In this document: positions 35,474 to 49,492 of the stretch, one piece after another
Layout: the number at the start of each line of letters is the position of its first letter
Numbering within the stretch: the stretch's first letter is position 1
NCBI GenBank assembly: GCA_016867815.1
Contig: VGIR01000002.1
Span: forward strand, 912 to 64,911
From: a candidate division WOR-3 bacterium
GTDB taxonomy: Bacteria; Hydrothermota; Tepidihabitantia; Tepidihabitantales; Tepidihabitantaceae
Length of the DNA stretch: 64,000 nucleotides
Reading direction: 5' to 3'
The notes under the pieces: generated by a model
Seen by the model: the letters and a program-made list of their open reading frames with translations, nothing else
Databases searched by the model: none
What the model was told of the DNA's origin: nothing
Translations under genes and position numbers: made by a program

Positions 35474-37534
35474 CTAGGGACCTGGGACCGGGGGTGATGA
35501 ATCCGGCGCCAGGTGGTCGCAGAGTTCCTTGACTGCCTGGAGGTCGGGCCGCAGGCGGAGCGCCCGTTCAGCCAGGACGCGGGCCGCGACCGATTCGCCT
35601 TTCGCAGCAGTGAGTACTGCCAGGTTGTACAAGGTCGGCACGTACGTTGAGTCCAGCCGCAGGGCTGACCGGTAGATCCCTTCCGCCCGGTCGGAGTCGC
35701 CGGCGGCGACCAGCAGGCTGCCCAGCTGGTTGAAGTACCGGGCAGTCGGATAGTCGTCGACCACGGCCTGGACCATTGCTGCGGCGCTATCGTACCGCCC
35801 GCGCAGCTTCAGCCGCTCGGCGAGCTGCAGCCGCGCCGATGGCAGCGTGCTGTCCAGCGCCAGGGAGCGGTGCAGTTCTGCTTCTGCCTCTCCCGCTCGT
35901 CCGACTGCAACGAGCGCATTGGAGCGGTTGAGGTGGAGCAGGGCCGAGCCGGGATGGACGGAGATGGCGCGGTCGAAGGTAGCCAGGGCGCTCTCGGCCT
36001 GACCGGCGGCGACAAATGCCAGTCCCAGTACGTTGACGGCGAGTTCCGAGTTAGGCTCCAGTTCGTTGGCAAGGCGCAGATTGTGAATTGCCTGGCGGTG
36101 GTCACCCTTCTCGCTGAGCAGCATCCCGGCGTGTATGTAGGCATGGACGAAACCCTGGTCGAGCCGGAGCGCGTGGTTGTACAGCGCGAGCGCGGAATCC
36201 GGCCGGAGCCCGGCAATCGCGTCACCAAGGTTCGCGTAGGCGCTGGGCGCGTCCGGCGCTTCGCGGACCATCGCCGTGAAGAGCGTCTCGTTGCTTCTCC
36301 AGATCCGGGTGCGTGCCATCGCATCGGCGCCGAGCACCACGATAACCGCGGCGAGCGCGAAGCCGACCACTTTCCGCGTCTTGACCCGGAAAGTGAGCAG
36401 GCGCGAGAGTGCAATCACCAGCACCATCACCATGCCGGCCGAGGGCAGGCAGAGCAGCCGTTCCGCGGCCAGCGGGCCGATGGAAGCGATGTTGGAGACC
36501 GGCAGCAGGAAGGCCAGGGTCCAGGCGTAGCCCCAGAGCGTGGCCGTGAACCGCCGCTTCAGCGCGAGGAGCGGAACCGAGACGATGAAGAGCAGGGCGA
36601 AGAGCAGATGCTGGGTCGGGACGAGGAACGCGTCACTGGCCGGGTACTTGGCGCGGTGCTCGAACGGCCAGAAGAACATCCTGATGTAGAGCCCCAGGGT
36701 GTTGGCGACGGCCGCGAGCCTGCCCCAGATTCCGACTCCGCGCTCGACCGGGATGGGCACCGGAACCGCGACGGCCCGCAGCAGCAGGTAGCCGGCAAGA
36801 ATCGCCACCGCCGCCAGGGTCAGCAGCCAGTAGCGCCGGTCGAACCTGACGCCCAACAGGAACGGGGCAAGCGCGATGAGCAGCGGGAAGAGCACTGCCG
36901 TTTCCTTGCTCAGCAGGGCAAGGCCGAATGCAGGCAGAACCACAAACCACCACCAGCGGTTGTGCTTGCGGAAGGACCGAAGCAGGGAGAAGGAGGCTAC
37001 CCCCACGAACAGGGTCAGCATGATGTCGGTTCGTCCCGATACGAACGCGACTGACTCAACGTGCGACGGATGGGCGGCAAAGAGCATGCCGCCGATCAGT
37101 GCCCAGACTCCCGAATGAAGCAACTCCCACAGCACCAGGGTCACCGCGGCGGCAGCCAGTGCGTAGAGCAGCAGGTTGACGACATGGAACCAGTGCGCGT
37201 TGTTGCGGGACAGGGCCTGGTCCAGCCAGAAGCTCAGGGTTACCAGCGGCCGGTAGTAGGCGGCGCCCGACCCGGCAGCCGGCTCCGGACTGCCGGCCCA
37301 GAATCCGCGCGAGAAGATGTCAGCCGGCCGGGAATGAGCCAGCAGCGAGTTGCCGGCGATAAGCGAGTTATCGTCCCAAACGAAGCCGAACCGCGCAGCC
37401 GGCAGATAGAGAGCAAGCGAAACGAAGGCGACCGCGGCCAACACGACGGCCATGCCGCCCCGGGTGCGCAGCTTCTCCTGGAGGGATTTGCCGTCCATCG
37501 CCCAAAGTCTTGCGGGAAACAGACGGTATGTCAA
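35474..37534 (-). CDS. TMTC-like membrane protein: N-terminal polytopic (PMT/GT-C-like) domain + C-terminal TPR repeats
   Basis: 686 aa with about 11 predicted TM helices followed by multiple TPR-like 34-aa repeats (…AYIHAGMLLSEKGDHRQAIHNLRLANELEPN…). Confidence 0.7.
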   Translation of the reverse strand: MTYRLFPARLWAMDGKSLQEKLRTRGGMAVVLAAVAFVSLALYLPAARFGFVWDDNSLIAGNSLLAHSRPADIFSRGFWAGSPEPAAGSGAAYYRPLVTLSFWLDQALSRNNAHWFHVVNLLLYALAAAAVTLVLWELLHSGVWALIGGMLFAAHPSHVESVAFVSGRTDIMLTLFVGVASFSLLRSFRKHNRWWWFVVLPAFGLALLSKETAVLFPLLIALAPFLLGVRFDRRYWLLTLAAVAILAGYLLLRAVAVPVPIPVERGVGIWGRLAAVANTLGLYIRMFFWPFEHRAKYPASDAFLVPTQHLLFALLFIVSVPLLALKRRFTATLWGYAWTLAFLLPVSNIASIGPLAAERLLCLPSAGMVMVLVIALSRLLTFRVKTRKVVGFALAAVIVVLGADAMARTRIWRSNETLFTAMVREAPDAPSAYANLGDAIAGLRPDSALALYNHALRLDQGFVHAYIHAGMLLSEKGDHRQAIHNLRLANELEPNSELAVNVLGLAFVAAGQAESALATFDRAISVHPGSALLHLNRSNALVAVGRAGEAEAELHRSLALDSTLPSARLQLAERLKLRGRYDSAAAMVQAVVDDYPTARYFNQLGSLLVAAGDSDRAEGIYRSALRLDSTYVPTLYNLAVLTAAKGESVAARVLAERALRLRPDLQAVKELCDHLAPDSSPPVPGP

Positions 37535-37558
37535 GCCAGCCGAGCGACGAGGGAAGGA

Positions 37559-38125
37559 CTACCGGCCGGGCGGTTCGTTCCACGACGCGATGTCGGGGAG
37601 CGGTTTGCGGGGGCGCTCATTGGGGGAGACGTCCGGGGCCGGATAGCCGAGCGCGATGAGCGCCACCGGCTTGTACCCCTTGCCGCGCAGACCCATGTGC
37701 TTGAGCAGCGCCCGGCCGTCATACCAGCCTATCCAGCACGTGCCCAGTCCCTGCTCGGCCGCGGCCAGCACGAAGTGCTCGCCGCCGATGCCGACGTCCA
37801 CCAACTGATACTGCGTGCCCTGAACCGCGCCGGCCACCCTGTTGACCAGCAGGTTCTCCTTCATGAGCAGGGCGACGAGGACCGGGGCGGCGGCGAACTT
37901 CTTCGACGCCGCATATGCGCCCACAAACACGGCGTCAGCCAGCTTCGCCTTCTTCTCCGGGTCGTCGAAGACGATGAACCGCCAAGGCTGCATGTTGTCC
38001 GCTGAGGGCGCGCGCCGCGCCGCCTCAAGGCAGAGTTCAAGTTTCTCGCGTTCCACCGGCCGGTCGGCAAACCGGCGCACCGACCGCCGGGTCCAGCAGA
38101 GCTTCAGGAAATGCAGATCACCCAC
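37559..38125 (-). CDS. Nitroreductase family protein
   Basis: 188 aa reading ...RRSVRRFADRPVEREKLELCLEAARRAPSADNMQPWRFIVF... Confidence 0.85.
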   Translation of the reverse strand: MGDLHFLKLCWTRRSVRRFADRPVEREKLELCLEAARRAPSADNMQPWRFIVFDDPEKKAKLADAVFVGAYAASKKFAAAPVLVALLMKENLLVNRVAGAVQGTQYQLVDVGIGGEHFVLAAAEQGLGTCWIGWYDGRALLKHMGLRGKGYKPVALIALGYPAPDVSPNERPRKPLPDIASWNEPPGR

Positions 38126-38129
38126 TGTT

Positions 38130-38235
38130 AGACCTCATTTCAGATTGCAGACTTCAGGTATCAAATTGCAGATTGAGGAAGCGGGATTCCGCCCGACATT
38201 CTGCACTCTGCATTCTGCAATCTGCATTTTGACTT
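38130..38235. repeat. Intergenic short tandem repeats of a TCTGCA / ATCTGCA motif, with partial inverted symmetry
   Basis: The sequence reads ...cagattgcagacttcaggtatcaaattgcagattgagg...ttctgcactctgcattctgcaatctgcatttt. The same heptamer family recurs at 16076-16105. Confidence 0.6.
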
Positions 38236-38242
38236 CGCCGAA

Positions 38243-38989
38243 TCAGCTAATCAGCCTCGGCAGCAACTCTCCTGCCTTCTCCTTGAAATGTACGTCCACA
38301 ATCGAACCCAACCCGGTATCGCGCGGATTCACGTCAACGAGCATGGCCGCGGCCTCGTGCGCGAGCAGCGCCCACTGCAGGATATACCCGAACGACGCCT
38401 CCGTGCCGATGACGAAGCAAAGGTCAATCCGGCCCTCAAGGAAATAGTGGTGGATTTGCTCGACCGGCTGCCGCGGCAGGTTCTCGCCGAACCAGACAAT
38501 GTCCGGCCGCAAGACATTGCCGCACATACACAATGGCGGGATTTCCGAAAGCGGTGTTTCGCGGTTCTCGAGAACGGTGCCGTCGCGCTCGCACCGCGTG
38601 TGCCAGAGCGAGCCGTGGATGCGCACCACTTCCTTCGAACCGGCCTGCTCGTGCAGGTCATCAACGTTCTGGGTCACGACGAACACCCGCCTGCCCGGCT
38701 TCTCCAGCGCAGCCAGTGCCAGGTGTCCCGGGTTCGGCCTCGCCTGCGCCATGTTGCCCCGGCGCTCATCATACCACTTCCAGACCTTCACCGGGTCGCG
38801 CTTGAAAGCCTCGCGGGTCGCGTAGTCGAGCGGGTTGAACTCCCTCCATAGTCCCCGGTCGTCGCGGAACGTCGGGACGCCGGACTCGGCCGAAATGCCC
38901 GCGCCGGAGATGACCATGATGTTTTTCGCCCTGGCCACCCGCTCGCGCACCAGCGCGATGTCCTCAGTCGTGGTCGTTTCGGTCTTCAT
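38243..38989 (-). CDS. cobB: NAD-dependent protein deacylase (sirtuin, CobB/Sir2 family)
   Basis: 248 aa with ISGAGISAESGVPTFRD..., catalytic His, and zinc-ribbon cysteines. Confidence 0.9.
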   Translation of the reverse strand: MKTETTTTEDIALVRERVARAKNIMVISGAGISAESGVPTFRDDRGLWREFNPLDYATREAFKRDPVKVWKWYDERRGNMAQARPNPGHLALAALEKPGRRVFVVTQNVDDLHEQAGSKEVVRIHGSLWHTRCERDGTVLENRETPLSEIPPLCMCGNVLRPDIVWFGENLPRQPVEQIHHYFLEGRIDLCFVIGTEASFGYILQWALLAHEAAAMLVDVNPRDTGLGSIVDVHFKEKAGELLPRLIS

Positions 38990-39280: not shown

Positions 39281-40171
39281 CTAGAGCCCAGGCGGTTTGT
39301 CGCCGAACTGCCATCCGTCCGCGAGGAGCCGTTTCACTGCCGGAAAGTGGCTCTTTTCCGATATCGACTTGCTGGTGATTGGCGGCATGTTGTCTTTGGC
39401 AATTGTGCGGGCGACCAGCAGGCCAACAACAGGACCTGCTTGGATGGCGATGACTCCTAGCCATGCATTGACGAAGAACGCTGCAACACCAAACACGATG
39501 CCGATGGCCAAGCCGATGTATCCCGCCTTGTTGACGGAGTCATAGCCATGAACGTGCTCCTTCTGGCAGGCGGGACACCGTGGTACTGCGACGGTGGACT
39601 TCCTCCATTGGTAGTGCGTCCCGTATTGCGTTCCCCTATAGATGGGCGTCTTGCTCGTTACCTTATGCATTGACACTGGGACGGTCGCAGCAGCGTCAGG
39701 CGGGTGCTGCCCGCAGAACCAGCAGCTTCTGGTCTCGATCTCGGCTCGCGCGTCATCGAGCCACTCTTGATCTTGCGGGTTGTCACGCATCGCGACAGCC
39801 TTCTCCAAAAACGGAATCGCCTCTTCTGGTTTTCCCAACTGAACGAGCGTACTCCCCAGCCAATGAAAGTCTATGGCTGTGGCTCGCAGCTCTACGGCGG
39901 CGCGGAGATACAGAAGCGAGTGTTCTTTCTGTCCGTCCCGGGACAAGCTCTGACCGATCTTGGCAAGCCGCGCCGCGACTTCTGCGACACCCTCGTGCGC
40001 AAGAACAGTCTCGGCGCGGTTGAGTGCAGTGATGGTCTCCGGATGTGACTTGTTCTCGACCAGTAGGCGCATGTGCGCCCGCCTAATGTCGGCTCGCGTT
40101 GGCCGCAAGGGCAGTCCCAAAGCCTCCTCGTAGCGTTCGTCGGCGAGCAACAGAGCAACAGCGGCTGACAC
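39281..40171 (-). CDS. Membrane-anchored J-domain-like protein (HPE variant) with TPR repeats and a CxxC...CxxC zinc ribbon; putative co-chaperone of the adjacent Hsp70
   Basis: 296 aa. The N-terminus ...LGLPLRPTRADIRRAHMRLLVENKSHPE aligns with J-domain helix II/III, but HPD is replaced by HPE. TPR-like helices follow (LYLRAAVELR...LGKPEEAIPFLEKAV). It contains CWFC...CPAC and two C-terminal TM helices (IGLAIGIVFGVAAFFVNAWLGVIAI). It lies 7 nt downstream of the Hsp70 gene. Confidence 0.6.
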   Translation of the reverse strand: MSAAVALLLADERYEEALGLPLRPTRADIRRAHMRLLVENKSHPETITALNRAETVLAHEGVAEVAARLAKIGQSLSRDGQKEHSLLYLRAAVELRATAIDFHWLGSTLVQLGKPEEAIPFLEKAVAMRDNPQDQEWLDDARAEIETRSCWFCGQHPPDAAATVPVSMHKVTSKTPIYRGTQYGTHYQWRKSTVAVPRCPACQKEHVHGYDSVNKAGYIGLAIGIVFGVAAFFVNAWLGVIAIQAGPVVGLLVARTIAKDNMPPITSKSISEKSHFPAVKRLLADGWQFGDKPPGL

Positions 40172-40177
40172 GGGAGC

Positions 40178-42217
40178 CTACTTTTTCTCGTCCACCTTGC
40201 TAGGGATAGCGCTGAGCTCGTCAAGAAGCTCACGGAATCGTTTCGGCTCGATGTCCCCTGTGTCCAGTAGGACAGAAAGCAGCTCTCCCGTGCGGTGCAT
40301 GAGGTCAGGGCAGTCGTCATTCGGAGACCCCCCGGCACCCCCAGGCTGCGCTCTTTCGGCAAGTGCCTCCAGTTCCGCGGCCTTGCTCTTCACTCGATCG
40401 TCCCGCGACGACACCATGTCCAGCGCTCGGCGTGCCGTTCGGAGAAGACGCTCCCGGTGGGACTCAGTCCAACTCCCGCTCCGCCCCTTTGCAGCTTCCA
40501 GCCATCCCGCAACATCCTCCTTGGTCAGCGGATCTTCGTGTTCCTCTTGCGCCACGATTTCGCTACCATCGAGCTTGTCCAATCCAACGTAGGTCACCGT
40601 CTTCCCGGACTGGCGATGCTGCAGCGCAAGCGACAGTTTGCGGTTCTCGTCCAGCGACACCTTCACGTCCACCAAGGGCAATTCGCTGTTCGGCCTAAGG
40701 CCAACGGGGACATGACCGAGGAGTTGGTATGACCAGACATCGCTTCCTACCGTCGACTTCGCTGCGTCCGGCACCTTGGAGACAAGACGGAATTTCACTT
40801 GCAGGAGTGTCGGGTCGCCGTATACGACTGAAACGGTGCCATCAATGGGGTATGTTGAGTTCGGGGGGATCGCAGTGTCGAAACGCGGGGCATGGCCCTT
40901 GACGAAGAACGTGGTCCCATACCCGTAGGGCGACCGCTTGACGACTGGCTCGATCACACGACCAGCCTTCAGGGCTGCTCCCTGAGCTACACACTCCATT
41001 GGGTTCACAGGGAAGCCACGCTGTTCAATCTGGTCAATCTGGGTTAGCACCTCTGCTCGGACACCGAGTGTGGCAAGCTCTTCTCGCACAGCCTTTCTGA
41101 TACACGGCATGTGCACAGGCCCGCCGACAAATAGCACATGGTCCAGCTCCTTCGCGGCGACATTGGCCTGACGCAGAGCAACGCCTATCGGTGTGCGGCT
41201 CTTCGCAAGAAACGACTGGTCATCCCCGCTGGCAGACTCAGAGAGAAGCCGCTCCAGGTCTGCACGGGTCAGCTCTAGCGACTGACCATCGGGTGACTCC
41301 ACGACCGTGGATTGTCTCTTGGAGAGTCTGATTTTCGCTCGCTCGACCTCGCTACGCAGCATGGCTTTCATCTTCGGGTCGGCATCAACGTCGTTGAGGC
41401 CGTGCTCATCAACCAAGTGGCTATACAGAACGTCGTCCATGTCGAGCCCGCCGAGCTTCTCGTTACCTGACGTCGCCGCCTCTCCGGGCGCGAGCTTGCC
41501 GCCGACCTCGGTAATGTGCAGGACCGTCACGTCCAGGGTACCCGCACCCATGTCGTAGGCAAGAATAACGGATTCCTTCTGAAGCTGAAGTCCGTACTTG
41601 ACCGCCGCTGCAGTCGGCTCAGCAATCGTGCCGAAATCGGTGAACCCGGCGTCGGCCGCCGCTCTCTGTATGGGTTGAACCCGAGTGTCCTTGAAGTACG
41701 CAGGTACGCTGATGACAGCCCGGCTGATCAGACCTCCGCCGGTGAACAGGTTGAGCGCCCGGTTCTCGGCGTCCTCCTTCACCTCGCGGAGTATGAACGT
41801 CAGAACCTCGGTTGGCGTAAGCGTACGGCCAGCCACGTTGATGAGTATGCCTCGATCAGGCCCTTCGATGATGTCGTACTGGAATCGCCTCACGTCACCG
41901 CTCTTGCATGCGGCGGCGTATGACAGGCCGACGAGCCGTTTGACGCCCCAGATGACGTGTTTGGGATTGATGGCCCAATCTTCCTTCGCCTTCTGGCCAA
42001 CGTACTTGACGTTGCCGTCAGCGCCAAAAGAGACGAACGACGGGAACTGCTTGCCGTAGAGAGTCTTCCCGTAACGACTTTCTATCATAGCTGGTGTGCT
42101 ATCGCGGGCGAATGCCGCAGCCGAGTTGAAAGTCCCGAGGTCGATGCCTATTGTGCGTTCTTCCACATGTTCTCCTTCAAGCGGCGGGAGCCACCTTCTC
42201 CTGGCCTGCACTGACAA
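40178..42217 (-). CDS. Atypical Hsp70-family ATPase (DnaK/HscC-like nucleotide-binding domain with a divergent C-terminal region)
   Basis: 679 aa. Hsp70 nucleotide-binding-domain motifs are present: IGIDLGTFNSAAA (phosphate 1), VISVPAYF, DMGAGTLDV (phosphate 2) and LFVGGPVHMP (adenosine). The C-terminal ~250 aa lack the canonical substrate-binding-domain signature. The start is uncertain: the annotated ATG overlaps the upstream gene by 41 nt, and an in-frame GTG lies about 50 nt downstream. Confidence 0.85.
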   Translation of the reverse strand: MSVQARRRWLPPLEGEHVEERTIGIDLGTFNSAAAFARDSTPAMIESRYGKTLYGKQFPSFVSFGADGNVKYVGQKAKEDWAINPKHVIWGVKRLVGLSYAAACKSGDVRRFQYDIIEGPDRGILINVAGRTLTPTEVLTFILREVKEDAENRALNLFTGGGLISRAVISVPAYFKDTRVQPIQRAAADAGFTDFGTIAEPTAAAVKYGLQLQKESVILAYDMGAGTLDVTVLHITEVGGKLAPGEAATSGNEKLGGLDMDDVLYSHLVDEHGLNDVDADPKMKAMLRSEVERAKIRLSKRQSTVVESPDGQSLELTRADLERLLSESASGDDQSFLAKSRTPIGVALRQANVAAKELDHVLFVGGPVHMPCIRKAVREELATLGVRAEVLTQIDQIEQRGFPVNPMECVAQGAALKAGRVIEPVVKRSPYGYGTTFFVKGHAPRFDTAIPPNSTYPIDGTVSVVYGDPTLLQVKFRLVSKVPDAAKSTVGSDVWSYQLLGHVPVGLRPNSELPLVDVKVSLDENRKLSLALQHRQSGKTVTYVGLDKLDGSEIVAQEEHEDPLTKEDVAGWLEAAKGRSGSWTESHRERLLRTARRALDMVSSRDDRVKSKAAELEALAERAQPGGAGGSPNDDCPDLMHRTGELLSVLLDTGDIEPKRFRELLDELSAIPSKVDEKK

Positions 42218-43490
42218 TTACGTCCGCTGGGCGTAGCACTTCAAGTTCTTCAGGCGAGCCACCTCTGATGCAGTAGCCTTTGCGGGCTACAGACAGCACC
42301 GTGCCCGTCGGTGATGAATCTGGGCGCTTCTCCAAGATGTTGTGTTGCAGATGGACGAACGGCCGACCCATCTCCACGCGGATTTCCTCGATTCCTACGT
42401 CTTCGATCGTCCGTCGTGCGACGCGCAGTTCCCTCGCAAGCTCGCTGTTCATGCCACCGCGCGTCTCGGTCAGTTCGAGGTTGTCTAAGAGCGTGAACAG
42501 GCCGTTCGCAACTGCGTGGTAGCGCGAGCGGGCCTCCCTTGTGACCTCGCCGCCTTCCACTCCGAAGCGCCAGATGCTCGCCCCTAGGTCTCGCATCTTC
42601 TCACGCGCAGCGTCCATCGTTTCCGCAACAGCCGACGCCGTGTCAGCCAGCTCGCCGGCGGTCTGCCCTTCTCGGGCGACGTCAGCAGCGGATCGAGTTT
42701 CAGCGCGCCCCTCTCGTGGTCCAGCAACGAACCGCACAACGAAAGCTGTGACCAAGCATGCCAGAAGCAACCCCCCAACGATGGGAATCCAGAGGGGGAT
42801 ACCCCGGGACGAGCGAGACGGTTGGTTGGATGTGGTCACTAGAGTGCGAGCGAGCATCCGAAGTCTATCGCGGAGTGTGGCTAGATCAGGGGCACTGGAC
42901 ATGTGACCGCCTGCGGCTCGCGCCAAGTCTGCAAGCAGTGACGTGTTAGCGCCCTCTGCGCCGGCGAGCCCGGTTACTAGCACCCGGGATGCTGTCCGGC
43001 GCAGACGCGGGGCCGTCTGTTCAAGGAGGACGGCCGCTGCCGAGTCTGTTGCCCTAGCTCCCCCCGGGACATCAAGCCAGCCGTCGGTGAGCAGAACGAT
43101 GACTCTGTTGGCCATCGGGCGAGCAGCGGCGAGCAGCGAGTCGGACATCATCAGCCCAGGATTCACGTCAGTATAGCCGTCTGCGAACTTGAGACCTTTG
43201 GATTTGAGACCCTTCAGTATCGCTGCGCTGACGCCATCACGGCTAGAGTCGGCCATGACGGTCCACGGTACTATCAGTCTGGCCTCTGACCCGAAGGCCA
43301 CGACTGCAAGTCGGCATTGCGCATCAAGGGAGTCAGCAAACTCCGCCACTGCCGCCGCGGTTGACGCCGGTACGGAGCCGGAGTTGTCAATCACTAGCAC
43401 AACATCGGTCAGTCTCTCGGTCGGAGCCTGCGCTGAGAGAGCGATCGCTACGGCTACCAACAGCAGTACGAACGTGCGCACGGCGGTCAT
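42177..43490 (-). CDS. Fusion protein: signal peptide + periplasmic vWA (MIDAS) domain + single TM + cytoplasmic GrpE-like nucleotide-exchange domain
   Basis: 437 aa. It has signal peptide MTAVRTFVLLLVAVAIALSAQA, vWA MIDAS motif VLVIDNSGS...LLTDG, and TM helix IPLWIPIVGGLLLACLVTAFVV. The C-terminus ...DVGIEEIRVEMGRPFVHLQHNIL...PTGTVLSVARKGYCIRGG...EVLRPADVIVSAG matches the GrpE C-terminal block (G.PFDP..H.A...PGTV..V.QKGY.L..R.LRPA.V.V). It overlaps the AAA+ gene by 4 nt (ATGA). Confidence 0.7.
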   Translation of the reverse strand: MTAVRTFVLLLVAVAIALSAQAPTERLTDVVLVIDNSGSVPASTAAAVAEFADSLDAQCRLAVVAFGSEARLIVPWTVMADSSRDGVSAAILKGLKSKGLKFADGYTDVNPGLMMSDSLLAAARPMANRVIVLLTDGWLDVPGGARATDSAAAVLLEQTAPRLRRTASRVLVTGLAGAEGANTSLLADLARAAGGHMSSAPDLATLRDRLRMLARTLVTTSNQPSRSSRGIPLWIPIVGGLLLACLVTAFVVRFVAGPREGRAETRSAADVAREGQTAGELADTASAVAETMDAAREKMRDLGASIWRFGVEGGEVTREARSRYHAVANGLFTLLDNLELTETRGGMNSELARELRVARRTIEDVGIEEIRVEMGRPFVHLQHNILEKRPDSSPTGTVLSVARKGYCIRGGSPEELEVLRPADVIVSAGQEKVAPAA

Positions 43491-45658
43491 GAGTTCTCCT
43501 TCTTCTCTGCCCCGAAGCCGATGCGCTTTGGCTTCAGCTTCTTGGTTCCTTCCTGAACTCTGGCAATAGCCGCAGTGAGGTGAGCCATTTTCACCACAAT
43601 CCCGCGCGGCGCGAACTTGTTGTCACGCAGGGCGGAGAATGCGGCCTCGCGGCATACCTCGGCCAACTCGGCCCCGGAGAAGCCTTCCGTGATGGCCACA
43701 AGCCGGTCGACACGCACGTCGTCCGCCAGCGGTTTGCGCTTCAGGTGTACGTTCAAGACGGCCTTGCGCGCTCCGGCGTCCGGCAGTGGGACTTCAACTT
43801 GGTAGTCGAATCTGCCGGGCCGAAGCAGCGCGGGGTCGAGGATGTCCGGTCGGTTGGTGGCCCCGATGACGAACACGCCGTCCGCAGACTCGGCGCCGTC
43901 TATCTCGGACAGAATCTGGTTGACCACCGTGGCGTCCGCGCGTTCGCCGTAGCTGCCGAGTCCCTCCGACCTTGCGGCGGCCACCGCGTCAATCTCATCG
44001 AAGAAGACCACGCAGGGGGCGTTCTGCCGGGCTTTGGAGAAGATGAACCGGACACGGTGTTCAGATTCTCCGTACCACTTGGAGCGGATTTCCGGGCCTT
44101 TGACGAAAATGAAGTTGGCACCGCACTCGGCTGCCGCGGCCTTGGCGAGCAGGGTCTTTCCTGTCCCCGGTGGGCCGTACAGAAGGATGCCCTTGGCGGG
44201 CTTCACATCGGCGGCCTCGAAAGCCTCACGCTTGGTCATCGCGTAGGTGATGTTCTCGACCAGGAGTCGTTTCACGTTGTCGAGCCCGCCGACTTCGTCC
44301 CAACTCACGTGCGGGATTTCAATCATGAACTCGCGCATTGCGGATGGCGAGACTGTGGCCAGCGCCTGGTTGAAGTCAGCCTGTGTCACCTGCGTGTCGG
44401 CCGGGACTTCCTTGAGTTCCTCCATACCGGCCACGGGCATCACGCGCCGGAGTGCGTCATACGCCGCCTCACGGCACAGAGAGGCCAGGTCAGCCCCAAC
44501 GTAGCCGACGGCACGCTCTGCCACCGACGCCAAGTCGACCTCAGGTGACAGGGGCATGCCACGCGTGTGTATGAGCAGAATCTCCCGGCGCCCCGAGGGG
44601 TCCGGAACTCCAATCTGGATCTCGTGTTCGAACCGCCCTCCCCGTCTGAGCGCGGGGTCGATCGCGTCGATGCGGTTCGTAGTGCCGATAACCACGACAG
44701 GCCCCTTCTTCTGCTTCAGACCGTCCATTTGAGCAAGGAAAGTCGCAACAACCCGCTGCTCAAGGTCACCGTGCGCAGACTCGCGCTTTGGGACCAGGGA
44801 GTCGAGTTCGTCGACGACTACGATGGCTGGTGCGTGGTTCTCGGCTTCGTCGAAGATACCGCGAACGTTCTCTTCCGTCTTGCCGTACATCGACGTGAAC
44901 AACTCCGGCCCGCTCACGCAGTAGAAGTTGGCCTTGATCTGGCTGGCAAGAGCCTTGGCAATCAGCGTCTTTCCGGTTCCGGGCGGACCATGGAGGATGA
45001 TGCCGCGCGGCGGCGTAATCCCCATGCGCTGGAGGACTTGTGGAAACCGCAGTGGATACTCCACGATCTCGCGAACTCTCGCGATTTCACGGCCCAGGCC
45101 GCCGATGTCGTGATAGCCCAGGGGAGTCTGCACGACCGCCTCTGGCTTCGTAGTGACCTGCGTGTCAGCGGTAATGGCGCAGACCCCCTTTGGATCGGTG
45201 CGTACCACCACGACCGGTCTCGGCTCCCCTGTGAAAGTGAAGAAGGCAGTCTCCTCGCCATCGGTGATAGGCTTGCCCATTATCCCTTCGCGTTCCTTGT
45301 CGCTGAAGTCTACCGGTACGTTCAGTTGTACTCTGCGGGCCTTGCTCGGGGACGAGAACTCAACCGACACGCGGTCCGTAGTCTCGACAGCGAGACAGCG
45401 TAGCTTGTATCTGTCAATCTGCAGGCGGGTCCGCGTGCCCGTTCTTACGTCGTCAATGATGCAGCCGCAGGCGCGGCCGTGAGCCCGGATGGTGGCGTAG
45501 CAGAGGCCGCCACTTGCGCGAGCGGATTCGAAAGCTCTGCGCGCGTCTACGTGCACGTCGGTCACGCATTCCAGCAGGCCGCGGTGCGTGCCGTCCAGGT
45601 CTATGCGACCCGACACCTCGGCAGTCAGCTTGGCCTGCGTCAACAGACTGCCCCACAA
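43487..45658 (-). CDS. CDC48/VCP/VAT-like AAA+ ATPase (N-domain + tandem D1 and D2 AAA modules)
   Basis: 723 aa with a TTG start. It has an N-terminal double-psi-barrel-like region and two complete AAA cassettes (GPPGTGKTLIAKA...DELD...; GPPGTGKTLLAKA...DEID...), each with second-region-of-homology arginines. Confidence 0.9.
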   Translation of the reverse strand: MWGSLLTQAKLTAEVSGRIDLDGTHRGLLECVTDVHVDARRAFESARASGGLCYATIRAHGRACGCIIDDVRTGTRTRLQIDRYKLRCLAVETTDRVSVEFSSPSKARRVQLNVPVDFSDKEREGIMGKPITDGEETAFFTFTGEPRPVVVVRTDPKGVCAITADTQVTTKPEAVVQTPLGYHDIGGLGREIARVREIVEYPLRFPQVLQRMGITPPRGIILHGPPGTGKTLIAKALASQIKANFYCVSGPELFTSMYGKTEENVRGIFDEAENHAPAIVVVDELDSLVPKRESAHGDLEQRVVATFLAQMDGLKQKKGPVVVIGTTNRIDAIDPALRRGGRFEHEIQIGVPDPSGRREILLIHTRGMPLSPEVDLASVAERAVGYVGADLASLCREAAYDALRRVMPVAGMEELKEVPADTQVTQADFNQALATVSPSAMREFMIEIPHVSWDEVGGLDNVKRLLVENITYAMTKREAFEAADVKPAKGILLYGPPGTGKTLLAKAAAAECGANFIFVKGPEIRSKWYGESEHRVRFIFSKARQNAPCVVFFDEIDAVAAARSEGLGSYGERADATVVNQILSEIDGAESADGVFVIGATNRPDILDPALLRPGRFDYQVEVPLPDAGARKAVLNVHLKRKPLADDVRVDRLVAITEGFSGAELAEVCREAAFSALRDNKFAPRGIVVKMAHLTAAIARVQEGTKKLKPKRIGFGAEKKENS

Positions 45659-45855
45659 TCGTCATTGTGATGGATGATGACTCGGTCTAGCATGTGGAGG
45701 TCATAGCGGAAGGCTAGTTCAAGTCAAGCAGCGCGTCGGCGCCGTGGCGGTGGTGAAGAGTTACCGGACGACCCAGCGGAGGACGCGTCGGAGCGACGCG
45801 AGCTTCCAGTTTCCAGTCTGCAGGTTGCAGTGCAAAGGACCAATCGAAGAGATGC

Positions 45856-45893
45856 CGCGCAGGTCAAAGGTCAAAAGGCAAAGGTCAAAGGTC
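45856..45893. repeat. Tandem heptamer repeat (AAGGTCA-like) x5
   Basis: The sequence reads aggtcaaaggtcaaaaggcaaaggtcaaaggtcaag. Confidence 0.6.
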
Positions 45894-46335
45894 AAGATTG
45901 CCGGATGTCCAGGCCGGGTCGGGTCAAGTTCCGGCGCCGGAAATGGCGAGAAGAGAATCAGCCGGAAGGGGGTCCTGACCGAGTAGCGCGCGAAGGGGAA
46001 GAACCTTGAGGGGCAAGCGAAAATCTGCCCCTCGTCTTTCACGAGGCACGCCCAATCGCAGGCAGCAGTGCCCGCGTCCGTCTTCTCGGCCCTGAACTCG
46101 CCCCGCATCGCCCAGCGACCCACTGCGTCAGTTGCAGCCGGGTTTGCGGCTCGCCATTCAGCAGTAGTCACGCTCTCGGGCAGACTCTCACCTCCCTCTT
46201 CGCTGGCCGCCTTAGCTACGACCTAGCTCAGGGCTTGACCCCGAGCCTTGCTTGCGACCCGCAACACCCGTCTGCCCGCACTTCAACCCACGCCCTGACT
46301 CGCGGCCCCGCTTAGGACTCGACCCAGGATTCCGC

Positions 46336-46455
46336 ATCTCAATCGGCACTTCACTCGGCATTTCACTCAGCACTTGAGTCGGCAACTCAGTTAACCACTC
46401 AATTGGCATCTCACTCAGCTACTCATTCGGTATTTCACTAGTCCAGTCAATCGAG
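46336..46455. repeat. Degenerate 12-nt tandem array (~10 units, consensus AyTTCACTCGGC) in a long low-GC non-coding spacer
   Basis: The units are atctcaatcggc, acttcactcggc, atttcactcagc, acttgagtcggc, aactcagttaac, cactcaattggc, atctcactcagc, tactcattcggt, atttcactagtc and cagtcaatcgag. Related 'attcagtc' and 'gagtcact' motifs recur up to about 46620. Confidence 0.65.
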
Positions 46456-46919
46456 TAGTAACTAAAGCATTCAATCCTCGATTCAGTCGGCAAGTCAGCC
46501 GGAGATTCAGTCCTTACTTCACTTGCCAGGTCGCTGCTCGATTCAGTCGAGAGATTACCTGTCTACTCATCTGGGAAATCAGGCGGGGAGTCACTCCCGG
46601 TGTGACTGGGGGAGTCACTGGGGGATTCCTGATGTCAGTGCTGATGCAGGCGCTGGGGCGAATAGGATAGTATATTGATTCTATGATGGTTAGGCAGTCA
46701 CACCGCCGCGCTTGACCGTCGATTCTCTGTGCAGTACTGTGTTGAGCTAGGGTCACGTCTCTGTGAAGCGTGCTGATGGGCTCTGAGTACTGCATTCCGT
46801 GGTCCTCGGTGAACAAAGCCCGGCCGGTAACGGTGAAGACCACGCAATATGGATATGACCCGAGCAGTCTTTAGGGAAGTCAACCCGCGGGGGTGAGGCC
46901 CTGCGAATGGAGGAGAACA

Positions 46920-47444
46920 ATGAGTGACCCGGTGAAGCGAGCGGAGCGGTGGAAGGCAAAGTACAAGACCCAGCGGGTGAAAGAGACGCTGGACGACATC
47001 CGTGAAGACATGGCCAAGCGCTACGAAGCCGCGATTGCCGACGTCTGCGTGATGGAGGGCAAGGTCAAAGAGGTCATCAACGCGGCCGGGGTTTCGACCT
47101 CGCTGTACGTGCCCTACCTCAACTTCGGTCGGCAGCTCTACAAACTGACGCGTCAGCAGAACATCACGGGCGAGAGCTTTGCGATGGCTGCCCAGGTGCT
47201 CCTCGACAAATGGGCGGCGCGCGGCTGCGACGCCTGCACCGGGACACGAGCGGGCAGGCACTGCTCGAAACCGTGGTCGCCTTTCCGGTGCTCCTGTTCT
47301 TCATGCTGGTCGTCATGGAGTTGTCGCTGCTGTACAATGCCAAGCAGTTGGCAAACTACGCCGCGTTCTGCGCGGCCCGCACGGCAGCGGTCAACGGCGT
47401 CAGCGCTACCGGGAAAACGCACTTCGCCGCGGCGATGGCGATGA
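46920..47444 (+). CDS. Hypothetical protein at the head of the Tad locus; the 3' part is questionable because of a frame overlap with the next gene
   Basis: The ATG at 46920 is preceded by GGAGGAG. The first ~100 aa (MSDPVKRAERWKAKYKTQRVKETLDDIREDMAKRYEAAIADV...) are protein-like. The last ~75 aa are Cys/Ser/Trp-rich, junk-like, and overlap the TadE-like gene by 234 nt. Confidence 0.3.
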   Translation: MSDPVKRAERWKAKYKTQRVKETLDDIREDMAKRYEAAIADVCVMEGKVKEVINAAGVSTSLYVPYLNFGRQLYKLTRQQNITGESFAMAAQVLLDKWAARGCDACTGTRAGRHCSKPWSPFRCSCSSCWSSWSCRCCTMPSSWQTTPRSARPARQRSTASALPGKRTSPRRWR

Positions 47445-47842
47445 GTCCGCTTTCCTCCGCGACCAACGTCAATGCCAACGAGATCCTGCTCGACTACGGC
47501 CTGACGAACCCGACCCAGACGGTCGCGGCCATCTGCAGCATCCCCGGTTTCCAGGGCGACAACGACAAGTGGCTGGCTCGTCTCGCCAACGCCTACCTGA
47601 GGACCGGTGCGCCTTCTTTTGCCGTGGCAAACTACGGGACGCGGAAGAACGTCACCGCGAACGTCACCTACGTCTATCGCTGCAGCTTCTGGCCGTTCGG
47701 CATCGTCTGGGGCCAGTCGGCAATCACCACCTACTACAACTCGCTCCCGGCCATCATCAAGCCTTTCGCCACGTTCGTCAATACGTGGCGCTGGAACATT
47801 GTGATTCACGGCCGCGCCGTGACCGACTACTGGTCATCCTAG
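47210..47842 (+). CDS. TadE-like pilus assembly / pseudopilin protein
   Basis: 210 aa reading ...HRDTSGQALLETVVAFPVLLFFMLVVMELSLLYNAKQLANYAAFCAAR, the TadE N-terminal motif with a class-III signal-like hydrophobic helix. Confidence 0.7.
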   Translation: MGGARLRRLHRDTSGQALLETVVAFPVLLFFMLVVMELSLLYNAKQLANYAAFCAARTAAVNGVSATGKTHFAAAMAMSPLSSATNVNANEILLDYGLTNPTQTVAAICSIPGFQGDNDKWLARLANAYLRTGAPSFAVANYGTRKNVTANVTYVYRCSFWPFGIVWGQSAITTYYNSLPAIIKPFATFVNTWRWNIVIHGRAVTDYWSS

Positions 47843-47869
47843 CGGCATGAGGGTACAGGGGGAAACAAC

Positions 47870-49492
47870 ATGAAGCCGTCTTTCAGCCAACGATCGCCGG
47901 TCGCTCTCGGCCGGCGATTGCTCTCTGACACCAGCGGGCAGGTGCTGCTGTTCGGCGCCGTGCTGGTAGTGGCGATTCTGGCATTCCTGTTCGTGATACC
48001 GAACGGAACCCAGATTACCACCAAGAAGATGCGCGCGCAGACCGCGGCCGATGCCGGCGCCTTCACCGGTTCGGTCTGGCTGGCCCGCGCCACCAACCTG
48101 AGCTCGAACATGAACATCGGCATCAAGAGCGTATACGAGTGGACAACGGTGCTGACCGTAGGCTCGGCCCTGGCACAGGCGCTCTATTCCGACACGCTCG
48201 ACTCTTCGGTCCATGCTTTGGGCGGGCAGATCACGCTGGCATTGTTCGGCAGCTCGAACCCGGTGACGGTGCACACCACCGAGTACCCGAGTGCGATCCG
48301 GAAGCTGGATACCGCCGCGCAGTGGCTCTACTCGCTGCAGGGCGACATCGCTACCAGCTTCCACAGCGTGGCAGCCACGCTCGGCACCCAGCAGGCCTGC
48401 AGCAACGTGGGCGTGGCGTATCCGCCGACTCAGGCGGCGGGAGGCTGGGCGATTGTCCGGACCAACGACACGATACCGCTGCTGTTACCGACCACGGCCG
48501 GCGACAGCGTGATCTACGCCGGTCTGAGCCAGCTAGCGCTTGCTCTGGATACTCTTCCGACCCTGGATCCCAACATCACGCCCGCCTACGGGCAGGTGAT
48601 AGTCAGCCCGTCCACCTGGGACGTCTGGGCCTACTATTCCGATACGAGCCTCTGGTTTGACCGCGTCGACAGTATCTACCACTGCTACAAGAAACCCGTC
48701 ATTTTTGAGTTCCAGAACAACTACAGCGGGAAGGTCGACACCGGGATCCAGTACATGGACCCGAGTGACAAGGGATACCCCGACTACAATCGCGGAGACA
48801 GCTGGCCGAAGTGGGTCTTGTACTGTTCCGAGGGTGAAGGGAATCACCACGTCTTCATCTGGCCCAACGGGGTCGGCAATCCTCCCTACAAGAACACCGA
48901 CCAATGGACCTTGATCAACAACCCTCATCCCGGCAACAACCGCTACAAGTTCGACACCGTCTGGACGCATGTACACCTGGCCAAGAGCACGGATACGTCC
49001 AGCCTGAGTGACTACGTGAGCCCCGAGGAGTCGATCTGGCTCGAGGAACACGAAGACGAAATCCGCAGCCACTACTGGAAATCCACCGGGTTCTACACCG
49101 GCGTCGAATCCACCGTCCCCTACAAGGGACCGAAGGTCCGGCCCCGCCGGGTCAATCCCGGCCGGGAGTTTCGCACCGTATGCTATGTCTGGCGGCAGGG
49201 AGCCTCAAGTGCTCCCTACGGCCTGGGCGCGCCGCTGGGCGGTACTTTCTTCCCGCGTAACGCGGTGGCGGCGTCAAGCCCGATGTTCGCGGTTGCCCGG
49301 TCAGTGCCCTACCAGACCCTCAGCAGTCCCACCCAGAACGAGCTTTTCTTTGAACCATCCTGGGACGTCAAGCTAACTCCGTTTGATTCGCTGGCGGTCG
49401 TGGAGATCACCGGCGATACGGCGTATTGCGGGCGGACTGGGTACTGCTTCGACAACCTTGAGGAGCTGCGCAAGTATGCGTTGCTGCCATAG
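47870..49492 (+). CDS. TadG-like large Flp-pilus assembly protein (Tad/PF13400-like N-terminus)
   Basis: 540 aa reading ...LSDTSGQVLLFGAVLVVAILAFLFVIP...KKMRAQTAADAGAFTGSVWLARA... Confidence 0.7.
   Translation: MKPSFSQRSPVALGRRLLSDTSGQVLLFGAVLVVAILAFLFVIPNGTQITTKKMRAQTAADAGAFTGSVWLARATNLSSNMNIGIKSVYEWTTVLTVGSALAQALYSDTLDSSVHALGGQITLALFGSSNPVTVHTTEYPSAIRKLDTAAQWLYSLQGDIATSFHSVAATLGTQQACSNVGVAYPPTQAAGGWAIVRTNDTIPLLLPTTAGDSVIYAGLSQLALALDTLPTLDPNITPAYGQVIVSPSTWDVWAYYSDTSLWFDRVDSIYHCYKKPVIFEFQNNYSGKVDTGIQYMDPSDKGYPDYNRGDSWPKWVLYCSEGEGNHHVFIWPNGVGNPPYKNTDQWTLINNPHPGNNRYKFDTVWTHVHLAKSTDTSSLSDYVSPEESIWLEEHEDEIRSHYWKSTGFYTGVESTVPYKGPKVRPRRVNPGREFRTVCYVWRQGASSAPYGLGAPLGGTFFPRNAVAASSPMFAVARSVPYQTLSSPTQNELFFEPSWDVKLTPFDSLAVVEITGDTAYCGRTGYCFDNLEELRKYALLP

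Follow-up and report, generated by a model that had tools for sequence, protein, structure and literature searches.

In a 64,000-nucleotide stretch of DNA from a candidate division WOR-3 bacterium (assembly GCA_016867815.1, contig VGIR01000002.1, positions 912 to 64,911; hereafter the window), a gene at 42177..43490 on the minus strand encodes a 437-residue protein whose C-terminal part is confirmed, by profile searches and a structural model, as a complete GrpE-family module. The module follows a von Willebrand factor A (vWA) domain and a single predicted transmembrane (TM) helix. The vWA-TM-GrpE gene stands second in a row of four closely spaced genes with the same orientation, which encode, in order, a Cdc48-like AAA+ ATPase, the GrpE fusion, an atypical Hsp70 and a membrane-anchored J-like/TPR protein. 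In the explanation that we favour, and to which, taken as a whole, we give slightly more credence than doubt, the fusion is a bitopic inner-membrane protein with a predicted periplasmic vWA domain and a predicted cytoplasmic GrpE module, and would act within a four-gene chaperone machine as a membrane-tethered nucleotide-exchange factor dedicated to the Hsp70 encoded directly downstream. The reading as a tethered exchange factor rests on the whole-module GrpE homology, the tight operon, the recurring gene order and the retention of anchoring in relatives that lack a vWA domain. Its exchange-factor part rests on the conservation of the ATPase residues of the partner Hsp70 and of the equivalents of E. 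coli GrpE residues Y178, R186, V190 and V192.

Homology to GrpE is detected by profiles. The Pfam GrpE family (PF01025) matches residues 360-427 at profile positions 103-164 of 165, with 29.1 bits (E 9.4e-7). The match lies above the gathering cut-off of the family (25.8 bits), in line with the significant profile match that a first-pass annotation of this DNA called for. NCBIfam GrpE models give weak matches that extend over the full GrpE length. For instance, PRK14139 aligns residues 279-429 with positions 31-187 of its 188. A profile of the tails of 29 family members (alignment A5) was searched against the PDB and matched Geobacillus GrpE (4ANI) at E 2.5e-13, positions 5-156 of the profile covering residues 60-213 of the chain, which is nearly the whole structured protein. 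Other PDB GrpE chains were matched at E 1.7e-6 (both 3A6M and 8GB3) and 0.008 (1DKG).

The modelled fold agrees. An AlphaFold2 model of residues 273-437 (predicted local distance difference test, pLDDT, 86.8) displays the three parts of the GrpE fold, namely a long helix, a helical bundle and a beta domain. When this model was compared with the PDB using Foldseek, the top 12 matches, including 1DKG, 3A6M, 4ANI, 9BLS/9BLT and 8GB3, were all GrpE or GrpEL1 structures (probability 1.00, 150-184 columns aligned), and the next match had an E of 0.3. The root-mean-square deviations of these matches are high owing to the orientation of the long helix in the monomer model. The expectation that the C-terminal part would fold as a GrpE was thereby borne out.

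Pairwise comparisons were less informative. A single-sequence phmmer search of the cytoplasmic tail against the PDB retrieved no GrpE and returned spurious aldolase matches (E of at least 0.07), and tblastn of E. coli GrpE (13 landmark residues verified) against the window hit the correct location at a non-significant E of 0.22. Because pairwise similarity is not significant, the homology rests on profile and fold methods. The first-pass annotation had described a residue-by-residue alignment of the tail with the beta arm of E. coli GrpE. Homology to the arm stands on profile and fold, whereas the pairwise alignment with the E. coli protein does not reach significance; moreover, the homology is not limited to the arm, as residues ~278-428 correspond to a whole GrpE. 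The sequence strings quoted in that annotation, including DNSGS and GIEEIRVEMGRPFVHLQHNIL...VLRPADVIVSAG, are all found in the translation. Within the beta domain, Y406, R420, V424 and V426 align with E. coli Y178, R186, V190 and V192, and the equivalent of K176 is also kept. R420 and V424 are invariant in an alignment of 34 family representatives (A3).

The open reading frame (ORF) begins with an ATG, and its first nucleotides form a 4-nt overlap with the stop of the AAA+ gene before it. Hydropathy profiles of the protein reveal two hydrophobic segments, at residues 1-25 and 229-259. The first corresponds to an N-terminal hydrophobic helix, either a signal peptide or a signal anchor (MTAVRTFVLLLVAVAIALSAQA; residues 1-22, 43425..43490, minus strand, as are all features of the protein). 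The first-pass annotation took it for a cleavable signal peptide. Cleavage by signal peptidase between AQA and P would place a proline at position +1, which disfavours it; cleavage between ALS and AQ is possible. A hydrophobic N-terminal stretch is present in most of the 34 aligned family members. It is followed by the vWA domain (residues 28-222, 42825..43409), the single TM helix (residues 232-256, 42723..42797), a cytoplasmic linker that is predicted to be disordered (residues 257-277, 42660..42722), the helical part of GrpE, comprising approximately the long dimerisation helix and the helical bundle (residues 278-365, 42396..42659), and the GrpE beta domain, which is the part contacting the Hsp70 nucleotide-binding domain (NBD) in 1DKG (residues 366-428, 42207..42395).

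A full-length AlphaFold2 model, built from the 34-sequence alignment (mean pLDDT 86.4), features a helix at residues 2-19, an alpha/beta domain at 28-222, a helix at 234-255 and disorder at 256-277 (pLDDT below 50). The GrpE module then follows, with a 66-residue helix at 278-343, a second helix at 349-365 and a beta domain at 367-427, mostly at pLDDT above 90. Hydropathy and model hence bear out the single TM helix placed after the vWA domain in the earlier reading, and the predicted topology agrees with its placement of the vWA and GrpE domains on opposite sides of the membrane. Canonical GrpEs are soluble proteins of the cytoplasm or the matrix, ~180-240 residues long; the window protein, which has 437 residues, begins with a vWA domain and contains two hydrophobic segments, is unlike them in size and topology.

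The architecture recurs. A word-indexed search with the whole protein returned 4 close relatives; an identical protein carries the NCBI name 'nucleotide exchange factor GrpE [candidate division WOR-3 bacterium]'. An exhaustive profile search with the cytoplasmic tail among 1.84 billion representatives identified 261 proteins at E <=1e-3. A TM segment is predicted in 48 of the 60 best representative matches, and soluble GrpEs of canonical length dominate only at scores weaker than ~E 1e-8. The fusion is found in other genomes, where the first-pass annotation had proposed to look for it: at least 34 clusters (50% identity) consist of proteins of 420-520 residues that feature a hydrophobic N-terminus, a vWA domain, a TM segment and GrpE (alignment A3). 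Pfam recognises GrpE in all 34 long family members (best E 2.2e-14) and VWA in 29 of them. Among the matches listed, each of the 34 representatives of at least 400 residues has at least one predicted TM segment, and this segment is aligned in A3. Lineages labelled as different phyla, whose proteins are 25-30% identical to that of the window, keep the GrpE fold, including the R/V/V/Y core of the beta domain.

All instances come from metagenome assemblies. The clusters are tiny (1-4 members), originate only from metagenome-assembled genomes (MAGs) or metagenomes, and have been automatically named GrpE. On these grounds we considered an artefact in which two unrelated genes had been fused by chimeric assembly or by a mis-called ORF. 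This was ruled out by the recurrence of the same architecture in so many clusters, obtained from independent samples with different assemblers and with conserved neighbours; the chance of an artefact is practically negligible. The fusion of GrpE and vWA domains, supported by Pfam matches to both, by the model and by its recurrence in the family, is real.

The N-terminal part is a vWA domain (PF00092/PF13519), as evidenced by Pfam matches to VWA_2 (residues 30-137, E 1.1e-11) and VWA (residues 29-207, E 1.1e-9) and by the Rossmann-like alpha/beta fold of this part of the model (pLDDT mostly above 90). Foldseek comparison of the full-length model with the PDB returned only vWA and integrin I-domain structures (E ~1e-9 to 1e-7), the third-best match being BatB (3IBS). 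The metal ion-dependent adhesion site (MIDAS) is complete in the window protein (D35-x-S37-x-S39, T107 and D136). Among the 34 vWA-bearing representatives, the DxSxS and D136 columns are complete in 15 and degenerate in 19.

Other proteins carry the same GrpE tail behind different membrane segments. In database proteins of ~300-330 residues, examined at the protein level (for example P0012, P0031, P0032 and P0037), the tail follows a four-TM bundle. In Actinomycetota proteins of 243 residues, encoded inside the cassette at L009:179-910 and L010:7902-8633, it follows a bare anchor of one or two helices. P0051 and P0061 are also among the representative matches listed with four-TM or bare-anchor forms. 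That four TM helices or a bare anchor can stand in for the vWA domain, and that the MIDAS is degenerate in more than half of the representatives, indicates that membrane tethering, and not ligand sensing, is the conserved property. Judged by its sequences, the clade is defined by a membrane-anchored GrpE, to which the vWA domain is a frequent, replaceable periplasmic add-on.

This bears on the claim of the first-pass annotation that exchange activity could be gated by an extracytoplasmic ligand. As a conserved principle the claim is disfavoured, since the vWA domain is dispensable, its MIDAS is often degenerate and the linker is disordered and variable. For the window protein itself, gating from outside to inside would mean that a ligand or metal bound at the MIDAS alters the oligomeric state or conformation of the protein, switching the activity of GrpE and, with it, of the Hsp70/Cdc48 machine. 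The complete MIDAS of the window protein and its predicted single-pass topology are compatible with such a device; the vWA domain is also the commonest N-terminal module of the clade, being found in 29 of the 34 long members, and, GrpE being known in general to work as a dimer, ligand-driven dimerisation of a single-pass protein is plausible. Against this stand the four-TM database proteins and the bare anchors of the L009 and L010 cassettes, which dispense with the vWA domain, the incomplete MIDAS of 19 of 34 representatives, and the nature of the TM-GrpE linker, which is gap-rich and variable in length in A3, is predicted to be disordered and carries no HAMP-like rigid coupler. We consider gating unlikely. 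A specific form of it, in which a periplasmic ligand or a damaged envelope component at the MIDAS would bring about the GrpE dimer, and through it cause Hsp70 and the Cdc48-like ATPase to extract or remodel membrane proteins, strikes us as quite unlikely. If true, it would constitute an outside-in device resembling endoplasmic-reticulum-associated degradation (ERAD) or the unfolded-protein response, and the first Hsp70 exchange factor controlled across a membrane.

The genomic context, which the first-pass annotation left out, points to a dedicated partnership. The cassette was present in each of the ten further loci examined, which belong to MAGs labelled as three other phyla and to metagenome contigs. 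A locus search was seeded with a 10-sequence alignment, and the four cassette proteins were compared with the resulting loci by tblastn. The same gene order was found in L001/L002, L003 (Pseudomonadota), L004/L007/L008 (Deltaproteobacteria), L005/L006 (Myxococcota) and L009/L010 (Actinomycetota), the taxa being MAG labels. In two further contigs from metagenomes, L083 and L084, this order is borne out by Pfam matches to AAA, VWA plus GrpE, and HSP70; the fourth gene has TPR matches in L083 and no Pfam match in L084. An Hsp70 gene adjoins the GrpE-like gene in every locus long enough to show both. When eight loci and the window were compared all against all, the four cassette genes were the only ones shared. 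In the window, the Hsp70 start lies ~11 nt past the GrpE stop, behind an AGGAGA sequence, and no canonical grpE, dnaK or dnaJ is present within the 64 kb.

The cassette may be placed within strings of housekeeping genes. In L084 it lies between trmD and rplS (L084:1118-13191), which we take to be normally adjacent, and in L083 it follows rpsB-tsf-pyrH-frr (L083:2699-5765). These positions suggest a mobile cassette inserted into conserved housekeeping gene strings.

Mobility of this kind, as suggested by the position in L084, and a patchy distribution in MAGs labelled as distant phyla, with unrelated flanks, would also suit a conflict or defence cassette, that is, a mobile anti-invader or envelope-surveillance system in which the vWA domain is the sensor and the ATPases are effector or threshold devices. 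A precedent exists in the modules of Hsp70, GrpE and DnaJ/TPR proteins found inside conflict systems centred on GAP1-N2 GTPases, described along with MoxR-vWA ternary systems by Kaur et al. 2020 (PMC7159879). Those systems resemble the cassette in comprising non-housekeeping sets of Hsp70, GrpE and J or TPR proteins, in combining vWA and AAA+ proteins, and in occurring as sporadic operons. In contrast to them, the cassette lacks a GTPase (none was seen nearby), an FNIII protein and effector domains; its AAA+ protein is of Cdc48 type and not MoxR; and its vWA domain is fused to GrpE and, being predicted periplasmic, cannot touch the cytoplasmic AAA+ ATPase. The predicted topology, if correct, rules out a direct MoxR-type partnership of vWA and AAA+ proteins, and neither a MoxR-clade AAA+ protein nor a cytoplasmic vWA co-chaperone nor a variable effector, the components of MoxR-vWA ternary systems, was found. 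Searches of PADLOC-DB 2.0 gave no match for the GrpE-like, Hsp70 or J-like proteins, and only generic AAA matches (IetA, TRIP13) for the AAA+ protein. The cassette encodes no effector that could be recognised as a toxin, nuclease or protease, and its neighbours are mostly housekeeping genes rather than defence islands. A role in conflict thus appears very unlikely. The window protein is likewise not a member of the CoCoNuT Hsp70-like systems (PMC11090510).

The partner proteins bear on how a tethered exchange factor could work. The first gene (43487..45658, minus strand) encodes a 723-residue double-ring AAA+ ATPase that matches the CDC48 model TIGR01243 at 705 bits and contains two Pfam AAA domains and a CDC48_2 N-domain. 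In L001-L004, L006-L008 and L010, the gene that immediately precedes the GrpE gene encodes an orthologue (52-87% identity), and an AAA+ gene occupies the same position, by Pfam, in L083 and L084.

The third gene encodes the 662-residue Hsp70 (40178..42166, minus strand). A list of ORFs places its start at a TTG at 42217, which implies a 41-nt overlap with the GrpE gene. The start is most likely the GTG at 42166, to judge from the AGGAGA at 42171-42176, the in-frame GTG that follows it and the start of the L001 orthologue. The Pfam HSP70 match (231 bits) covers only the NBD, and DnaK NBD chains are matched at E 2e-50. Alignment to E. coli DnaK (nine landmark residues as expected) revealed that this Hsp70 and six orthologues keep the ATPase residues D8, K70, E171, D194, T199 and D201. 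In the same set of proteins, R167 is replaced by G or D, R151 by V or T and N170 by A, and the VLLL linker is absent. R167 and the interdomain linker are central to the coupling of Hsp70 to J-domains.

The fourth gene (39281..40171, minus strand) encodes a 296-residue protein that combines a J-like N-terminus, TPR repeats matched by Pfam TPR families, a Cys4 motif resembling a zinc ribbon and, towards the C-terminus, a hydrophobic hairpin (hydropathy, residues 215-258). Orthologues directly follow the Hsp70 gene in L004, L005 and L007-L010. The N-terminus resembles helices I-II of J-domains (YEEALG...R..I.RAH.RLL), and hhalign comparison of this part with J-domains gave P 0.001 and a probability of 21% over 30 columns. 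Pfam gave no DnaJ match even with E values up to 1 allowed, and only 2 unannotated proteins were retrieved when a profile of this N-terminus was used as query. The HPD tripeptide is absent from all orthologues, 'SHPE' in the window protein being coincidental. The term 'J-like' is therefore unproven, with sequence resemblance as its basis; together with the Hsp70, the protein may form a co-evolved non-canonical pair.

In the mechanism that we propose, the GrpE tether would double as a membrane recruiter of the partner Hsp70. The GrpE module would dimerise and speed the release of ADP from this Hsp70, whose conserved ATPase residues imply a nucleotide cycle that needs resetting. As the N-terminal end of the long GrpE helix would be tied to the membrane, the bound Hsp70 would have its substrate-binding end oriented toward the membrane, an orientation that would suit membrane-associated or emerging polypeptides. 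The Cdc48-like AAA+ ATPase would extract or unfold clients, and the vWA domain would not be central to the mechanism but would serve as an accessory for docking or sensing in the periplasm. Together, the four proteins would form a self-contained machine acting on polypeptides at the cytoplasmic side of the inner membrane.

Several observations weigh against this mechanism. The clade has no equivalents of E. coli G122, P151, F86, R183, R104 and R73/R74, although the register of the helical part is uncertain. These positions are well conserved among 44 canonical GrpEs in the same alignment, and are reportedly DnaK contacts (Harrison 1997, Gelinas 2003). Since R167, N170 and the VLLL linker are missing from the partner Hsp70, and HPD from the J-like protein, the canonical cycle driven by J-proteins may be inoperative, which makes it less certain that an exchange factor is needed. 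The genes on either side of the cassette vary from locus to locus, and no client, effector or regulatory element was identified for the cassette.

Some of these losses would fit a pseudo-exchange factor or pure tether, a protein that has lost exchange activity and docks the Hsp70 NBD, as Tim44 does, or scaffolds the AAA+ ATPase through its coiled coil. The absence of the GrpE hallmarks G122, P151, F86 and R183, of canonical allostery elements in the Hsp70 and of HPD in the J-like partner speaks for such a role. Yet the whole GrpE fold and the R/V/V/Y core of the beta domain have been maintained across lineages, which goes beyond what a tether needs, and co-evolution with the divergent Hsp70 may have reshaped the interface. 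We accordingly regard a pure tether as improbable and retain the membrane-tethered exchange factor; for the latter, the lost contacts may reflect either co-evolution of the GrpE-Hsp70 interface or altered exchange activity.

By the profile and model tests that were run, the protein is a member of both the GrpE and the vWA families, but an architectural variant of GrpE. Its domain content is not new in itself, as databases automatically label it 'nucleotide exchange factor GrpE'. It shares with canonical GrpEs (PF01025; E. coli GrpE-DnaK 1DKG, Geobacillus 4ANI, M. tuberculosis 8GB3) homology over the whole protein, the beta-core residues and an adjoining Hsp70. In contrast to these soluble proteins, it is membrane-integrated, as predicted, behind a periplasmic vWA domain, and it lacks the equivalents of G122, P151, F86 and R183. 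The partner differs as well: canonical GrpE serves DnaK, whereas the window partner is an Hsp70 without R167 or the VLLL linker. Nor does the cassette correspond to a canonical dnaK operon (grpE-dnaK-dnaJ, HrcA/CIRCE), because R167, N170, the linker and HPD are absent and the CIRCE operator that many bacteria have was not found.

The closest functional analogy is the import motor of mitochondria, which consists of Tim44, mtHsp70, Mge1/GrpEL1, Pam18 and the J-like Pam16. In both cases an Hsp70 cycle would be localised at a membrane by bound co-factors, with participation of a J-like protein devoid of HPD and a GrpE-family factor. Mitochondria differ in having a soluble exchange factor and a separate protein, Tim44, as the tether, while in the cassette the exchange factor itself would be the membrane protein. 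The cassette additionally features a Cdc48-like AAA+ ATPase, and it shows no evidence of a translocon.

Two other systems share single aspects with the cassette. BatB (3IBS), from the aerotolerance operon, has a membrane-attached vWA fold; in contrast to the window fusion, Bat proteins carry no GrpE module, and, as far as is known, they are partnered with MoxR and not with Hsp70 and Cdc48. In cyanobacteria, a DnaK1/DnaJ3/GrpE system acts at type IV pilus motors (PMC9239167). Like the cassette, it employs a dedicated Hsp70 paralogue at an inner-membrane machine, and pilus genes occur near the cassette in the window, L005 and L083. However, the DnaK1 system uses the single soluble GrpE of the cell and canonical J-proteins, and the adjacency of cassette and pilus genes is not conserved. 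No description of a membrane-anchored GrpE, a vWA-GrpE fusion or the cassette was found in the full-text literature searched, whose coverage is incomplete.

The genes around the cassette vary. Downstream of it in the window, on the same strand (35474..38989, minus), lie genes for a Sir2-family deacylase, a nitroreductase and a 686-residue membrane protein that resembles PMT_2 glycosyltransferases and carries TPR repeats at its C-terminus; the association of these genes with the cassette is not conserved elsewhere. TadE-like and Tad/TadG-like genes are located on the opposite side, in divergent orientation (47210..49492, plus). Genes for PilY1 beta-propeller proteins occur by the cassette at L005:4723-8322 (minus) and L083:15082-17377 (minus). 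A pilus link as part of the system was considered and not adopted, since adjacency is not conserved across loci; it may be due to chance or reflect a link to envelope or pilus machinery. A gene for a BcrAD/BadFG-type activase ATPase (ASKHA fold) lies upstream of the cassette, and divergent from it, in a Deltaproteobacteria MAG (L004:1304-3322, minus) and an Actinomycetota MAG (L010:1113-5396, minus), and was not seen in the window.

The ~1.5 kb between the start of the AAA+ gene and the TadE-like gene (45659..47209) contains only weak ORFs (45761..46171 and 46893..47444) with no Pfam match, and is presumably a regulatory region shared by the cassette and the Tad genes. Promoter and terminator scans remained at background level, including in this region. 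A search that allowed up to 3 mismatches revealed no CIRCE operator, and no Rfam families were detected between 38 and 48 kb. The only tRNA is far off, at 21.6 kb.

Hsp70s reach membranes through J-proteins or separate tethers, such as DjlA, Sec63, Tim44 and Pam18, and to our knowledge every characterised GrpE-family exchange factor is soluble. An exchange factor that is itself an integral membrane protein, usually equipped with a binding domain outside the cytoplasm and always encoded with a divergent Hsp70, a Cdc48-like unfoldase and a J-like/TPR membrane protein of its own, would extend the known ways in which the Hsp70 cycle is localised and, possibly, controlled. The system is compact, consisting of four genes so far seen only in MAGs and metagenomes, and could be reconstituted. 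Because R167, the interdomain linker and HPD are all absent, the cassette would provide a natural test of how far an Hsp70 can do without its canonical allosteric cycle.

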